From contig JAFGNP010000006.1 of the NCBI GenBank assembly GCA_016926975.1, forward strand, positions 2,696-66,695: DNA of 64,000 bases, in the 5' to 3' direction. The notes beneath the pieces were generated by a model. The model worked only from the letters and a program-made list of their open reading frames with translations, was not told the DNA's origin and searched no databases. This document shows positions 57,997-63,872 of the stretch, piece by piece; the first letter of the stretch is position 1, and each line of letters starts with the position of its first letter. The position numbers were made by a program, and so were the translations under genes. This DNA comes from Coriobacteriia bacterium. GTDB taxonomy: Bacteria > Actinomycetota > Coriobacteriia > Anaerosomatales > Anaerosomataceae.

Positions 57997-58758
57997 CTAG
58001 AGCCCGCAGCCGGCGATCTCGTTCCGCGCTACCGTCTCCAGCGCGGCTGTCTGCCGGAGGGCCTTCGCCAGCGCGGTACGCGCCGAGGCCGGCGTGTTGT
58101 TCTGCTCCGAGATGTGCAGCGCGAACACATGCGACAGACCCTTCCAGCCGAGTGTGCCGAGTGCCGCTGCCGCGGCGGCGTTGGAGAGGTGCCCGCGGTC
58201 GCCCGCGATTCTCCGCTTGAGGAACGGCGGGTACGGCCCCTCGGCCAACATCTTCTCGTCGTGGTTCGATTCGAGCCCGATCGCGTGACACCCGCGGAGC
58301 GCTTCGGCTATCTCAGGCGTGACCACTCCGGTGTCGGTGGCTACCCCGATGCGATGCCCGTTTCGGCTCTCGAAGGTGTAGCCGCACGACTCGGAGGCGT
58401 CATGTGCGGTCGGGAACGAGGTCACTCGCATTCCGGCCACAGAGAACCGGTCCTGGCGCCGGATGGCAGAGGTCTCGGGGACGTCGGCCAGACACCGGGC
58501 GGCGGCCTGCAGCGTTCCCGGGGTGCCCATGACCGGCACGCCGAGGCGTCTTGCAAGCACGCGCGCTCCTCGTACGTGGTCGACGTGCTCATGGGTCAGC
58601 AGAATCGCCTCTATGCGTGCGTCGCTGCCGCCGGCTGCGGTGATCCGGCGCATTGTCTCGCGGGCCGAGATGCCCACATCGAGCAGGACGGCGCGGCCGC
58701 CCGACTCGATGAGAGCCGAGTTGCCCGACGATCCGGATGCGAGAACGATCAGGCGCAT
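57997..58758 (-). CDS. MBL-fold metallo-hydrolase (YycJ/PhnP-like)
   Basis: MRLIVLASGSSGNSALIE..LLDVG...LLTHEHVDHVRG. ATG 58758 is used. The upstream part of track ORF 57997..58953 is not credible. Confidence 0.8.
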   Translation of the reverse strand: MRLIVLASGSSGNSALIESGGRAVLLDVGISARETMRRITAAGGSDARIEAILLTHEHVDHVRGARVLARRLGVPVMGTPGTLQAAARCLADVPETSAIRRQDRFSVAGMRVTSFPTAHDASESCGYTFESRNGHRIGVATDTGVVTPEIAEALRGCHAIGLESNHDEKMLAEGPYPPFLKRRIAGDRGHLSNAAAAAALGTLGWKGLSHVFALHISEQNNTPASARTALAKALRQTAALETVARNEIAGCGL

Positions 58759-58921
58759 GAGAGCGCTGCGGGTCCAAGGTGGCGTGGCATGTGAGGATTG
58801 TACCGTGCCGGGCTGACATCCGCTTGCCCGCGTCGTCTCATCGCGCGAGAAGCGGACCGTCGGTGGGAATACTCTGTTGAGGCAAACGCACGGGATTCTG
58901 TTTCCTGCCGGAGGAGGGGAA

Positions 58922-59284
58922 ATGGCCAAGGACCGTTGGTCACTCCGCAACATCTACATGTACCTGGTGTGTCTCATCACGCTGATAATGGTCATCGTGG
59001 CGGCCGTCGGCCTAGTTCGCAGCTCTGTGGAGCTGGCGTATCCGGATCCCGGCTACTACATGGACAAGCCCTTGGACGATGACGGTGAGCCTGTCTACAG
59101 CGAAGAGGAGTGGGAGAGGCAGATGGAGGCGCAGGAGGCCTCCAGCCGCCGTTATGCCGTCTTGAGCCTGGTGGGCAACGCCGCGATGGTGTTGATCGCA
59201 GGCCCGCTGTACGTCTACCACTGGCGCAAGATCGAAGTCGAGCATATCGACAAACCCGCGGTCGAGCAGGCGACAGGGGCGTAG
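58922..59284 (+). CDS. Small 2-TM membrane protein (hypothetical)
   Basis: 120 aa from ATG 58922 with GGAGGGG upstream. Two hydrophobic helices flank an acidic loop. Confidence 0.5.
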   Translation: MAKDRWSLRNIYMYLVCLITLIMVIVAAVGLVRSSVELAYPDPGYYMDKPLDDDGEPVYSEEEWERQMEAQEASSRRYAVLSLVGNAAMVLIAGPLYVYHWRKIEVEHIDKPAVEQATGA

Positions 59285-59333
59285 CCGCCCGATCGATAAG
59301 GTCCCGCATAGATGGCACGCAAGGAGGAACGGC

Positions 59334-59579
59334 ATGACCGTGAAGGTGTTCGCCCTATCGACCTGCCCGTACTGCCGAATGGCACGCAAGTATCTTGACG
59401 ACAACGGTGTCGCCTACGAGGTCGTTGAAGTCGATCTTCTCGAAGGTGACGAGAGATCTGCTGCGGTCGCCGAGGTGAAGGAGATATCGGGGGGCACGTC
59501 GTTTCCAGTGATGCTGCTCGATGGAGAGCTGATAGTAGGCTTCAACAAGAAGCGGATGAAGGAGCTGTTGGGTCTGTGA
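59334..59579 (+). CDS. Glutaredoxin/NrdH-like small redoxin (CPYC)
   Basis: 81 aa reading VKVFALSTCPYCRMARKYLDDNGV.YEVV.VD...TSFPVMLLDGELIVGF. Confidence 0.85.
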   Translation: MTVKVFALSTCPYCRMARKYLDDNGVAYEVVEVDLLEGDERSAAVAEVKEISGGTSFPVMLLDGELIVGFNKKRMKELLGL

Positions 59580-60253
59580 GCGAGGGGGAGGGGCGCTCCG
59601 TCCGTCGGCGCTTCGCCGAGGGGACGACGGTAGACGATCTCAGGGTCTACATGGGTCCGTTTGTCGCCACTCTCGGCTACAAGTTCAACACTGAGGCGGA
59701 CTTCGTGGACGAGGTCCTGAACTCGGAGATCGAGATACTGGACGCTACCGGCGATGTCTACTGCCCGTGTCGCATCCGTACGGGCGATCCCAAAGAGGAC
59801 CTCAAGATCGTCTGTCCGTGTATTCCTTTCCACTCAGAGCAGTTCGCCGCGATGCGCAAGTGCTGGTGTGGGCTGTTCATCCGGGATGATGTCGAAGATG
59901 GCGCAGATCTCCTCGGCGTGATCGAAGAGCCTTCACCCGGCGAGAGAGTGGAAGTCCCTGTCTGCCGGGTGAGCGACCTCGCGCCGGGACAGGTCCGGCA
60001 CGTGAAGGTGGGAAGGTCGGATGTCGCGATAGCGCGTGTTGCCGACGAGTTCTTCGCCCTCTCGAACGTCTGCAGGCATGCCTTCGGGCCTCTGTCCGAC
60101 GGGGTCCTAGAGGGGTACGAAGTGATGTGCCCGTGGCACGGCTGGCGTTACGACGTGCGCGACGGATCGACCGATCATCCGGATGCCGACGTGAAGACGT
60201 ACCCGGTTGTCGTGCGCGACGGGTTGGTCCTGGTGAGCGTCACCGCAAGGTAG
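59576..60253 (+). CDS. Ferredoxin:thioredoxin reductase catalytic-subunit-like domain fused to a Rieske [2Fe-2S] domain
   Basis: N-terminal half: YCPCR-x14-CPC-x13-CWCGLF, compared with FTR-c CPC..CPC..CHC. C-terminal half: CRH-x16-CPWH, a Rieske CxH...CxxH. GTG overlaps the glutaredoxin stop (GTGA). Confidence 0.7.
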   Translation: MSEGEGRSVRRRFAEGTTVDDLRVYMGPFVATLGYKFNTEADFVDEVLNSEIEILDATGDVYCPCRIRTGDPKEDLKIVCPCIPFHSEQFAAMRKCWCGLFIRDDVEDGADLLGVIEEPSPGERVEVPVCRVSDLAPGQVRHVKVGRSDVAIARVADEFFALSNVCRHAFGPLSDGVLEGYEVMCPWHGWRYDVRDGSTDHPDADVKTYPVVVRDGLVLVSVTAR

Positions 60254-60271
60254 GCTTCGGTGAACGGGACG

Positions 60272-61204
60272 CTACCCGGCGCTCTCGCCCTTCTCCTTGA
60301 ACAGTTCGGCTATCCCGCCGATGGATCCCAGCACGCCGGAGATCTCCATCGGTAGGAAGACCTTGTTCGCTGCGCCGTTAGCGATGAACTTGAGCGCTTC
60401 GAGATAGCGGATCGCGATGAGATCGTTGGTTGGGTCACCCTCGTGGATCGCGGCGAACACGCTCTTGATGGCGAGTGCCTCACCTTCGGCTACCGTCAGC
60501 TTCTGGAACTTCTCGGCTTCGGCCACTTCCTTGATCGCGTTGGCCTTGCCCTGCGCGTCGAGTATGGCCGCCTCCTTGGATCCTTCGGCCCGAGTGATGG
60601 CGGCCTGCTTGTCGCCGTCTGCCTCCAGGATGACCGCACGGCGCGTGCGCTCGGCCTTCATCTGGCGGTGCATCGCCTCGGTGACGTCGGTGGGTGGCTC
60701 GATGCGCTGGAGTTCGACGCGCACCACGCGCACGCCCCACTTGTCGGTGGCATCGTCGAGTATCTGGCGCAGCGCGGCGTTGATCTGCTCGCGGCTGGTG
60801 AGCGATTCGTCGAGCTGCATCTCGCCGATGACGTTGCGCAGGTTGGTCTGGGCGAGCTTGGTGGCCGCGATGTAGAAGTTGGCGACGTTGTAGACGAGTT
60901 TCACCGGGTCGGTGGCCTCGTAGTAGACGACCGCGTCCACGGTCACGACCACGTTGTCCTTCGTGATGACTTCCTGCGGCGGCACATCCACGACGTTCTC
61001 GCGCATGTCCACCTTGGTGAGCTTGTCTATGACCGGGATGATGATGGTCAGTCCCGAGTCCACCGTTCGCTGGTACTTGCCGAGCCGTTCTATCAGACCC
61101 TTCTCGTAAGGCCTGACGATGCGGATGCCCGCAAGCGCGTAGAAGAAGAGCACCGAGAGTACGATCAGGCCGAACACGATCACGAAGACGACTGCACCCT
61201 CCAT
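60272..61204 (-). CDS. SPFH/band-7 (stomatin-like) protein
   Basis: 310 aa with an N-terminal TM and the [16 protein letters not shown]...[10 protein letters not shown]...AEGEA pattern. Confidence 0.9.
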
Positions 61205-62780: not shown

Positions 62781-63371
62781 ATGAGGATGAGAGCGGCACC
62801 GCTCCTTATCGCAGGGCTGGCGCTGGCAGCCCTGACGATCGTGGGGTGCACGTCCGACGGAGGGTCCACGGACGTCGCGGACTCGGAAGAGGCAACCGAG
62901 CAGAACGGCTTGGAAGTCGGCACCGAGGCGCCCGACTTCCGCATGAAGAACCAAGACCAGCAGACGTTCGCCCTCTCCGACTACAAGGGTACCAAGAACG
63001 TCGTTCTGGTGTTCTACCCGGCCGATTTCACGCCCGTTTGAGAAGGCGAGCTGTCCGGGTACCGTGACAACTACCAGTACTTCCAGGAGCGCGACACCGA
63101 GGTCTTCGGCATTAGTGCTGACGGTTGGGCATCGCACGCGGAGTTCAGGCGTCAGCTCGAGCTTCCTTTCGATCTGCTTTCCGACTGGGACCGCGAAGTG
63201 ATGCCGGCATATGGCGCGTTCAGCCCGCGGACCAAGATCGCCAACAGGTGGAGCTTCCTGATCGACAAGGAGGGTATCGTTCGCTTCACCCAACACACCG
63301 GTCTCAACGAGCCCCGTGATGTTGAAGCGATGATGGAAGAGGTCGACAAGCTCTATCAGGAGCAGCAGTAA
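62781..63371 (+). CDS. Lipoprotein peroxiredoxin (Bcp/AhpC-TSA type) with in-frame TGA (candidate Sec) at 63039-63041
   Basis: ATG 62781 with GAGGAGGGA upstream. Lipobox TIVGC. EAPDF....VVLVFYPADFTPV-TGA-EGEL, followed by 109 further in-frame codons with the rest of the Prx fold (VFGISAD...FPLLSDW-like...FLIDKEG). TAA at 63369-63371. Confidence 0.7.
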
Positions 63372-63419
63372 CCGGCGGTGGCTGTAGCACACAGGTGCGA
63401 GGCCGACAGGAGGGTTCTT

Positions 63420-63872
63420 ATGAGGCGGCTAGTCACGGTGGTACTTGTTGTCGCGCTTGCCGCGGTGCTGAGTGTCGGCATCGCCGGCTGCGATGAAGGC
63501 GCCACCACCGAAGAGAAGGCACCCTTGCACTTCATCCAGTTCTTCGATCCGGACTGCCCGTTCTGCCAGGCGATGGAGCCGACGGTGGACAAGCTTCGCG
63601 AGGAGTACGAGCCCAGGATCGAGAAGTTCGAGATCATCGATGTCTCCACGACCGAGGGCCTTGCACAGGCCGATGAGTACGGAGTGTTCATCACGCCGAC
63701 ATTCATCATCCTCGACGCGGAGGGCGAGGAGCTAGACCGCGTACAGGGTGCGGCGACCGAGGAGAGCATGATCAAGTTCATCGATCGCGGCATCGACGAT
63801 GTGACCGGGACGGCATCCGGCCCGCGTGAAGAGATACCCACCACGGGTGGTACCGAGCAGGGCAGCGAGTAG
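63420..63872 (+). CDS. Thioredoxin-like lipoprotein (CPFC)
   Basis: ATG 63420 with AGGAGGG upstream. Lipobox IAGC. FFDPDCPFCQAMEP...ITPTFIILD. It is the Cys paralogue of the TGA-containing ORF at 31714. Confidence 0.8.
   Translation: MRRLVTVVLVVALAAVLSVGIAGCDEGATTEEKAPLHFIQFFDPDCPFCQAMEPTVDKLREEYEPRIEKFEIIDVSTTEGLAQADEYGVFITPTFIILDAEGEELDRVQGAATEESMIKFIDRGIDDVTGTASGPREEIPTTGGTEQGSE

Follow-up and report, generated by a model that had tools for sequence, protein, structure and literature searches.

A CPYC redoxin gene coupled to a predicted iron-sulfur disulfide reductase with a fused Rieske domain in a Coriobacteriia bacterium

The present study concerns two overlapping genes in a stretch of 64,000 nucleotides (nt; hereafter the window) from a Coriobacteriia bacterium of the family Anaerosomataceae (assembly GCA_016926975.1, contig JAFGNP010000006.1, positions 2,696 to 66,695 of the forward strand). 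The first gene encodes a redoxin of 81 amino acids (aa) related to glutaredoxin (Grx). The second encodes a 225-aa protein, in which a domain resembling the catalytic subunit (FTRc) of ferredoxin:thioredoxin reductase (FTR) and the related ferredoxin:disulfide reductase (FDR) is joined to a Rieske [2Fe-2S] domain. The features of the pair, numbered from the first letter of the window, are as follows.

59334..59579, forward strand: gene of the CPYC redoxin, 81 aa, with the motif STCPYC and the active site C11-P-Y-C14
59576..60253, forward strand: gene of the FTRc-like/Rieske fusion protein, 225 aa, GTG start
59559..59579, forward strand: translational-coupling junction, with Shine-Dalgarno sequence, GTG start and TGA stop read from the sequence
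59576..59900, forward strand: FTR-catalytic/FDR-like domain, about residues 1-108 (PF02943, phmmer, AlphaFold2 (AF2) model and Foldseek)
59901..59950, forward strand: inter-domain linker, about residues 109-125 (low pLDDT)
59951..60253, forward strand: Rieske [2Fe-2S] ferredoxin-type domain, residues 126-225 (PF00355, PDB matches and Foldseek)

The gene pair and the domains of its proteins

The GTG start codon of the fusion gene (59576-59578) overlaps the TGA stop codon of the redoxin gene (59577-59579) in a 4-nt GTGA, and an AAGGAG sequence (59559-59564) lies within the end of the redoxin gene, 11 nt upstream of the GTG. One genome per species was scanned for related loci, which gave 200 relatives, and the best 80 loci were examined. 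The redoxin gene was found directly upstream of the fusion gene in 79 of these, and the 80th ends at a contig edge. The 4-nt overlap was present in 49 of the 79 related loci; elsewhere the two genes are no more than 38 nt apart. The open reading frames (ORFs), the GTGA coupling and the motif spacings given in the initial annotation of this DNA were confirmed from the sequence, and the CPYC redoxin that it had described as coupled to the fusion proved to be a fixed partner. A scan of positions 58700-60500 detected no promoter- or terminator-like sites.

The N-terminal domain of the 225-aa protein matched the PF02943 profile (FeThRed_B) over residues 29-109 (66.4 bits, cut-off 22, E 2.6e-18). 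It carries the motif C63-P-C65, x14, C80-P-C82, x13, C96-W-C98-GLF, and all six Cys and W97 were invariant in a 15-sequence alignment; the CPC/CPC/CWC pattern was found in 79 of 79 related loci. By analogy, C63, C80, C82 and C96 should be the ligands of a [4Fe-4S] cluster and C65-C98 should be the redox-active disulfide, following the roles reportedly assigned to the individual cysteines of Synechocystis FTR. By homology, W97 would occupy the position of His86 in FTR and of a Tyr in FDR.

Comparison with solved structures placed this domain nearer to FDR than to the classical enzyme. In a phmmer search of PDB sequences, the best matches were 4TPU (1.3e-9) and 7PWE (3.5e-8), with classical FTRc at 0.013-0.037 (2PVD 0.013). 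Residues 1-125 were also modelled with AF2 from an alignment of 53 sequences (pLDDT 76, pTM 0.67), and in Foldseek this model retrieved only FDR and FTR structures, namely 7PWE (4e-5), 4TPU (1.8e-4) and, with E of about 0.2, plant and cyanobacterial FTR (2PU9 0.17). The initial assignment to the FTR catalytic family thus holds for the family profile and the six Cys, but by these matches the protein is an FDR-type enzyme rather than a classical FTRc.

The C-terminal domain matched PF00355 (Rieske) over residues 127-210 (71 bits, cut-off 20.3, E 6.1e-20), so that both domains named initially score far above their cut-offs in a hidden Markov model check. Its motif, C166-R-H168, x16, C185-P-W-H188, contains the predicted ligands C166, H168, C185 and H188. 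These four residues were invariant in the 15-sequence alignment, which argues for a bound [2Fe-2S] cluster. The domain lacks the two extra Cys that bc1-type Rieske proteins use for a loop disulfide. Sequence matches in the PDB were to CarAc (3.2e-15) and to the ferredoxins of naphthalene and biphenyl dioxygenases, and the modelled domain (pLDDT 85-95) resembled dioxygenase Rieske ferredoxins (CarAc/BphA3) with Foldseek TM scores of 0.71-0.79.

Between the two domains lies a linker in which G109, L112, G114 and V115 were invariant in the same alignment. In the AF2 model of the full-length protein, residues 111-120 had a pLDDT of 46, and the linker is probably flexible, as suggested by this low-confidence modelling.

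The 81-aa redoxin matched the Pfam glutaredoxin family PF00462 (57 bits, cut-off 22.9, E 2.3e-15), and remained under every NCBIfam equivalog cut-off (YruB, NrdH, mycoredoxin and Grx3), the best being the YruB family (52.9 bits vs 88.55). Its nearest solved relatives are the archaeal Grx-like proteins 3IC4, 5CAX and 3NZN and the N-terminal Grx domain of 7PWE (2.3e-10); the redoxin therefore looks like a protein of the methanoredoxin/archaeal-Grx type. The active site was CPYC in 76 of 79 loci and CPHC in two. Reading of the sequences revealed no signal peptide or membrane segment in either protein of the pair. An N-terminal RRRF was considered as a Tat signal and rejected, as no hydrophobic stretch follows it.

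Distribution of the fused form and of the CWC clade

A search of 5.8 billion proteins yielded 657 homologues of the fusion protein, with details for the best 120. These 120 are 69-82% identical to it and all contain both domains, and the named sources among them are metagenome-assembled genomes labelled "Coriobacteriia bacterium". The best 120 are 198-229 aa long, and the full-length homologues, more than 600 in number, measure 213-235 aa. Their sources are assemblies made independently of one another (NCBI, JGI, ENA and Logan), and some of the contigs exceed 1 Mb. All of the best 80 loci are from environmental Coriobacteriia/Actinomycetota, among them Anaerosomatales and Coriobacteriaceae bacterium EMTCatB1. 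When 1.84 billion representatives of 50% clusters were searched exhaustively with HMMER, there were two full-length clusters with the fusion architecture (P0121 and P0122, 67% and 53% identical to the fusion protein) together with fragments. Since only two such clusters were found, the fused form is taken to be a narrow family; on this survey it is confined to one actinobacterial lineage.

Other matches in two stretches from the representative search were rejected as fusions, since they are tandem Rieske proteins. Two metagenomic fragments were also seen. P0158 (139 aa) runs from an FTRc of the type described below into Rieske-like sequence through an apparent frameshift (CWWGC...), and P0251 (104 aa) begins with a similar FTRc and ends in the C-terminal strands of a Rieske protein of the downstream type described below; they may be products of misassembly or frameshift, or else point to additional FTRc-Rieske fusions that arose independently. 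Databases annotate the 225-aa protein in generic terms only. Full-text literature searches found no paper describing a combination of FTR or FDR with a Rieske domain, in agreement with the initial remark that a built-in Rieske centre had not been described.

In a tree of FTRc domains, all proteins with the CWC triplet formed one clade (support 96/94), separate from the enzymes with CYC and CHC. Within it, the Rieske-fused actinobacterial branch is sister to a branch of proteins that stand alone or belong to gene cassettes. The alignments with PDB sequences showed CYC in 4TPU and 7PWE, CHC in FTRc (7BZK and 2PVD) and CWC in the fusion protein. The stand-alone proteins are 105-120 aa long, with the pattern CPCQ...CPCIP(F/Y)H...CWC; the fusion protein reads CPCIPFH...CWCGLF, which matches this signature of the clade. 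They were found in Methanocella, Methanolobus, Methanomethylovorans, Bathyarchaeota, Promethearchaeota (Asgard) and Chloroflexi, and 52 of 52 stand-alone relatives retrieved carry CWC. In these alignments the Trp is a signature of a whole widespread clade. The initial annotation had pointed to a Trp in place of the catalytic His; the CWC is indeed present, but it is a trait of the clade, and in 4TPU and 7PWE the His is already replaced by Tyr.

Nine unrelated contexts of stand-alone or Grx-fused CWC FTRc genes were inspected. A Grx-like gene was directly upstream of the CWC FTRc, or fused to it N-terminally, in 9 of 9 of these cassettes, whose FTRc shows 40-47% identity. The order Rieske-Grx-FTRc-Rieske occurred in five contexts (L087, L089, L091, L092 and L093). 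The remainder were Grx-FTRc-Rieske on a short contig (L086), three Rieske genes followed by Grx-FTRc (L088), Rieske-Grx-FTRc (L090), and a peroxiredoxin gene followed by a Rieske gene, a fused Grx::FTRc and a second Rieske gene (L094/L095). The protein P0145 is a Grx::FTRc(CWC) fusion. A literature search found no published description of unfused Rieske-Grx-FTRc(CWC)-Rieske cassettes. A second Rieske gene was not found for the pair itself, neither in the window nor within 6 kb on either side in the 80 loci.

The two Rieske proteins of the cassettes differ from each other. Those upstream of the redoxin carry the pattern CxHxGC...CxCH and lie at the following positions.

L087:2356-2694; L089:2415-2732; L091:2376-2735; L092:2422-2745; L093:2408-2725; L094:2687-3004

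This pattern is that of disulfide-bridged Rieske proteins (bc1/b6f-like, usually of high potential), which one would not expect of small soluble proteins in strict anaerobes. The downstream proteins (127-136 aa) do not show this pattern, and some 25 residues are inserted in them ahead of the last strands.

The peroxiredoxin gene of the last context (L094:2056-2667, also in L095) is of the 2-Cys type and lies directly upstream of Rieske-Grx::FTRc(CWC)-Rieske on the same strand. One frame was called as two genes (57 and 142 aa), with a TGA exactly at the peroxidatic Cys (FYPADFTFV*ATE). Because of this in-frame TGA, the product is probably a selenocysteine enzyme, cytoplasmic in appearance, whose gene was split by the gene caller.

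Other genes beside the cassettes varied. Flavoenzymes or similar proteins were an FMN reductase (L087), a nitroreductase (L088), a Zn-ADH-type (zinc alcohol dehydrogenase) protein (L089) and an OYE (old yellow enzyme; L093), and hemerythrin and multicopper oxidase genes were found near the cassette in L089. The stand-alone CWC FTRc nearest to the fused branch (P0130, 107 aa, in L081-L085) has a context that resembles a small genome, with a TnpB/Cas12f-like gene, a GDSL lipase gene and a VapB/PemK toxin-antitoxin pair as neighbours.

Proposed function, alternatives and genomic context

The reading preferred here, which we consider fairly probable, is that the products of the two genes work together as a dedicated thiol-disulfide redox pair, in which the 225-aa protein is a predicted iron-sulfur disulfide reductase of the FTR/FDR class that receives electrons through its Rieske domain and reduces the redoxin. 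In the proposed mechanism, a [4Fe-4S] cluster bound by C63, C80, C82 and C96 would adjoin the redox-active disulfide C65-C98. The Rieske domain, on its flexible linker, would stand in for the rubredoxin of FDR or for the ferredoxin docked by the plant FTR, and would hand two single electrons in succession to the [4Fe-4S] cluster. The reduced active-site dithiol would then reduce the CPYC disulfide of the co-translated redoxin, which may forward the electrons to cytoplasmic targets.

The role of the Rieske domain as an electron carrier is suggested by the recurrence of Rieske neighbours around the CWC Grx-FTRc cores. The redoxin is proposed to be a substrate or partner of the reductase on account of their genetic coupling, and fusions of Grx with FTRc elsewhere (P0145 and 7PWE) argue for a direct partnership by the Rosetta-stone principle.

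Several observations weigh against this reading. The full-length AF2 model had a pTM of 0.52 and poorly modelled cluster loops, with only the Rieske domain good. P0130 had neither a Grx nor a Rieske neighbour within 4 kb. In a maximum-likelihood tree the fused Rieske domain grouped with generic stand-alone Rieske ferredoxins (100/97), and with neither Rieske type of the cassettes, although approximately unbiased tests rejected neither a grouping with the downstream type (p 0.10) nor one with the upstream type (p 0.105) nor one with both (p 0.40); the fusion may therefore be a cassette that was condensed or the outcome of a separate recruitment. Energetics are a further difficulty. Dioxygenase-type Rieske ferredoxins usually have midpoint potentials near -150 mV, and the disulfides of Grx and NrdH lie at -200 to -250 mV. 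Since the Rieske centre would thus be above Grx and NrdH, and far above the FTR disulfide, reduction in the forward direction may be uphill unless the Rieske potential is unusually low.

A source of electrons was also sought. No reductase for the Rieske centre was conserved beside the pair within 5 kb on either side in 81 loci, which is a further point against the reading. The pair had been called self-contained in the initial annotation, and this was wrong, because a one-electron Rieske centre still needs an outside donor. Over the same range, no conserved gene for an electron donor or a client was found beyond local synteny, the syntenic neighbours of close relatives being an MBL-fold (metallo-beta-lactamase) gene, a B12-type ABC transporter, SPFH/NfeD genes and FdhE. 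The genomic context of the nearest stand-alone Rieske relative (P0140) was uninformative. No oxygenase gene lies near the pair, and no FTRv-like gene (for the variable subunit of FTR) adjoins it. In one relative (L001:10806-12203, reverse strand), a gene that lies downstream of the fusion gene, at a distance of about 4.1 kb, encodes a 465-aa Pyr_redox_2 flavoprotein resembling NDH-2 or a ferredoxin reductase. Such a gene is near the pair in 24 of 81 loci, and the corresponding site is just past the end of the window. Its product is a candidate Rieske reductase, albeit one that is not conserved.

A broader interpretation is offered tentatively, as one that may well not hold. The CWC enzymes, whether fused or in the cassettes of methanogens, Asgard archaea, Bathyarchaeota and Chloroflexi, would be a class of their own among disulfide reductases, widespread in anaerobes, in which a Rieske protein, and not ferredoxin or an NAD(P)H flavoenzyme, would be the obligate input to the [4Fe-4S]/disulfide site. 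The Trp would tune this site, and the class would feed a dedicated methanoredoxin-like redoxin, possibly for oxidant defence based on peroxiredoxin.

Electron flow in the reverse direction is unlikely, but it is a serious rival, because a Rieske centre near -150 mV sits above typical redoxin couples. The enzyme would then oxidise the redoxin or other dithiols and pass single electrons through the [4Fe-4S] cluster to the Rieske centre, and from there to a quinone-linked acceptor or one that reduces O2 or reactive oxygen species, thus acting as a thiol:acceptor oxidoreductase. As a rule, a Rieske centre that has no low-potential features lies at a more positive potential than protein disulfides do. 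The second, upstream Rieske protein of the cassettes, with CxHxxC...CxCH, is typical of the disulfide-bridged type of higher potential, and genes of oxidant defence are common neighbours in the anaerobic hosts (hemerythrin and multicopper oxidase in L089, peroxiredoxin in L094). The last of these points in both directions, however, as the peroxiredoxin directly upstream of the L094 cassette needs a reductant and not an oxidant. Moreover, disulfide formation in the cytoplasm has no obvious use in these organisms, and the characterised members of the class, FTR and FDR, are all reductases (PMC7278568; PMC6262447).

A disulfide reductase devoted to ribonucleotide reductase (RNR), with the redoxin acting as a hydrogen donor like NrdH, is improbable. 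There is a precedent for the pairing in Methanosarcina barkeri (Wei et al. 2015, as cited in PMC5704485 and PMC9176816), whose FDR reportedly reduces an NrdH-like redoxin that feeds a class III RNR, and the redoxin described here has weak NrdH matches (TIGR02194, 1.9e-9, under the cut-off; 1R7H, 4e-5). It is, however, nearer to the archaeal Grx/methanoredoxin-type proteins than to NrdH, and an RNR gene was absent both from the conserved neighbours of the pair (5 kb on either side, 81 loci) and from the nine cassette contexts.

The Rieske domain might instead serve as a sensor or regulator of redox state, O2 or NO, or as a cluster-less NirD-like fold, which gates a ferredoxin-dependent FDR. Cluster-less Rieske folds of the NirD type exist, the fusion protein matched NirD in NCBIfam (1.7e-16, under the cut-off), 3C0D and 2JO6 were among the Foldseek matches, and no reductase partner is encoded near the pair. 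The four cluster ligands are nevertheless invariant across the family and the position of the domain equals that of the rubredoxin relay in FDR, so that such a role is at least as improbable as the one in RNR supply.

That the 225-aa ORF is an assembly or frameshift join of two genes, for which nothing was found beyond the existence of FTRc and Rieske as separate genes in other phyla, can be dismissed with near certainty: the same architecture was found in all of the best 120 of the 657 homologues and in 80 loci of different species-level genomes, and the frame is continuous through the conserved linker.

Four further genes of the window lie near the pair.

57997-58953, reverse strand: MBL-fold hydrolase, divergent and upstream of the pair
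58922-59284, forward strand: DUF5671 membrane protein, ending 49 nt before the redoxin gene
62781-63371, forward strand: selenocysteine (Sec)-peroxiredoxin, with TGA at the peroxidatic Cys (FYPADFTPV*EGE) and a lipoprotein-type signal (…LTIVGCTS)
63378-63872, forward strand: thioredoxin-like protein (Pfam Thioredoxin), with a lipobox-like N-terminus (…GIAGCDE)

The DUF5671 gene, present in 31 of 80 related loci, may be co-transcribed with the pair. The MBL-fold gene is kept in 67-69 of 80 loci, and one also follows the unfused cassette in L091 (L091:3753-4556), which may be a coincidence or a weak functional link. The Sec-peroxiredoxin and the thioredoxin-like protein had been put forward initially as nearby proteins in need of a reductant. 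They are, however, predicted to be exported lipoproteins, with a signal peptide and a Cys at the cleavage site, and only 10 (peroxiredoxin) and 9 (thioredoxin-like protein) of the 80 loci have them beside the pair, which points to synteny of close relatives and not to a functional link. A tie of the system to peroxiredoxins in general may still exist, as the distant cassette in L094 directly follows a peroxiredoxin gene.

Short contigs in two metatranscriptomes, which belong to the sediment study that also yielded the best DNA match, are identical to a part of the Rieske domain (60010-60160) and to genes that flank the pair. The contigs are strandless and DNA carry-over is possible, so they are a weak sign of transcription in situ.

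To our knowledge, few routes exist for the reduction of thioredoxin-fold proteins, namely NADPH flavoenzymes, flavoenzymes dependent on F420 or ferredoxin, and the [4Fe-4S] enzymes FTR and FDR, and we know of studies of the last class in chloroplasts, cyanobacteria and one methanogen. If the proposed function is correct, the Rieske input and the Trp in place of His or Tyr would widen the mechanistic range of this class. Rieske proteins, best known from respiration and oxygenases, would gain a role in controlling the redox state of thiols in the cytoplasm of strict anaerobes. Such a function would, moreover, help to explain how abundant uncultured Coriobacteriia of sediments, methanogens and Chloroflexi keep their thiols reduced or cope with oxidants. 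The fusion is part of a larger clade of anaerobic archaea and bacteria that is linked to Rieske proteins and is itself uncharacterised. Both proteins are small, soluble and well suited to heterologous expression, so that the idea lends itself to a direct test.

Comparison with known systems

The closest characterised relative is the rubredoxin-bearing FDR 4TPU, which bears out the initial remark on archaeal relatives. It shares with the fusion protein the FTRc-like [4Fe-4S]/disulfide domain, the CPC-x14-CPC spacing, the lack of a variable subunit and a C-terminal one-electron metal domain in the same position, and it is the top sequence match and one of the two top structural matches of the N-terminal domain. 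Reportedly, FDR reduces methanoredoxin in vitro as well as a thioredoxin, its rubredoxin would relay electrons from ferredoxin to the cluster, and a Tyr replaces the His. The two differ in that 4TPU has a rubredoxin domain and CYC, whereas the fusion protein has a Rieske domain and CWC and falls in a separate clade; it is also found in Actinomycetota, with its redoxin partner on an overlapping gene. The identification of 4TPU as the Methanosarcina acetivorans enzyme (Kumar et al. 2015; Prakash et al. 2018) follows PMC7278568 and PMC6262447, in which the FTR/FDR class is summarised.

The Grx/FDR fusion of Desulfotalea psychrophila (7PWE) likewise couples a Grx-like and an FDR-like module, and it was the top Foldseek match of the N-terminal domain. 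In that protein the Grx is fused N-terminally, the triplet is CYC and there is neither a Rieske nor a rubredoxin domain, whereas in the pair described here the Grx has a gene of its own and the triplet is CWC.

The classical FTR shares the PF02943 family and the six-Cys layout of a cluster next to a disulfide. The classical spacings of x16 and x8 with CHC, as quoted in the initial annotation, agree with the alignment of 7BZK, and they contrast with x14, x13 and CWC in the fusion protein, where W97 is invariant. The similarity to the N-terminal domain is marginal both in sequence (E 0.013-0.037) and in fold (E of about 0.2). Furthermore, the classical system comprises FTRv, a soluble plant-type ferredoxin and thioredoxin, whereas the pair has a fused Rieske domain and a Grx-like partner and no FTRv. 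FTRv has been reported in oxygenic phototrophs only (PMC9025218).

The unfused cassettes of methanogens (Methanocella and Methanolobus), Chloroflexi and further uncultured anaerobes are alike in their FTRc of the CWC clade, in the Grx-like gene directly upstream and in having Rieske proteins as invariable companions. In them, each part has a gene of its own, there are usually two Rieske proteins of different kinds, and the redoxin has CPWC, whereas the pair has one fused Rieske domain and CPYC.

For the Rieske domain, the nearest known proteins are the dioxygenase ferredoxins CarAc (1VCK), BphA3 (2E4P) and that of naphthalene dioxygenase (2QPZ), which gave the best matches of the C-terminal domain and have the same CxH...CxxH ligands with no loop disulfide. 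Those proteins are stand-alone shuttles from an NAD(P)H reductase to an oxygenase, whereas the Rieske domain described here is joined to a predicted disulfide reductase. What is new is the combination of a fused Rieske domain, CWC and a dedicated redoxin in a reductase of the FTR/FDR class; the class itself is known, and no new principle is involved.

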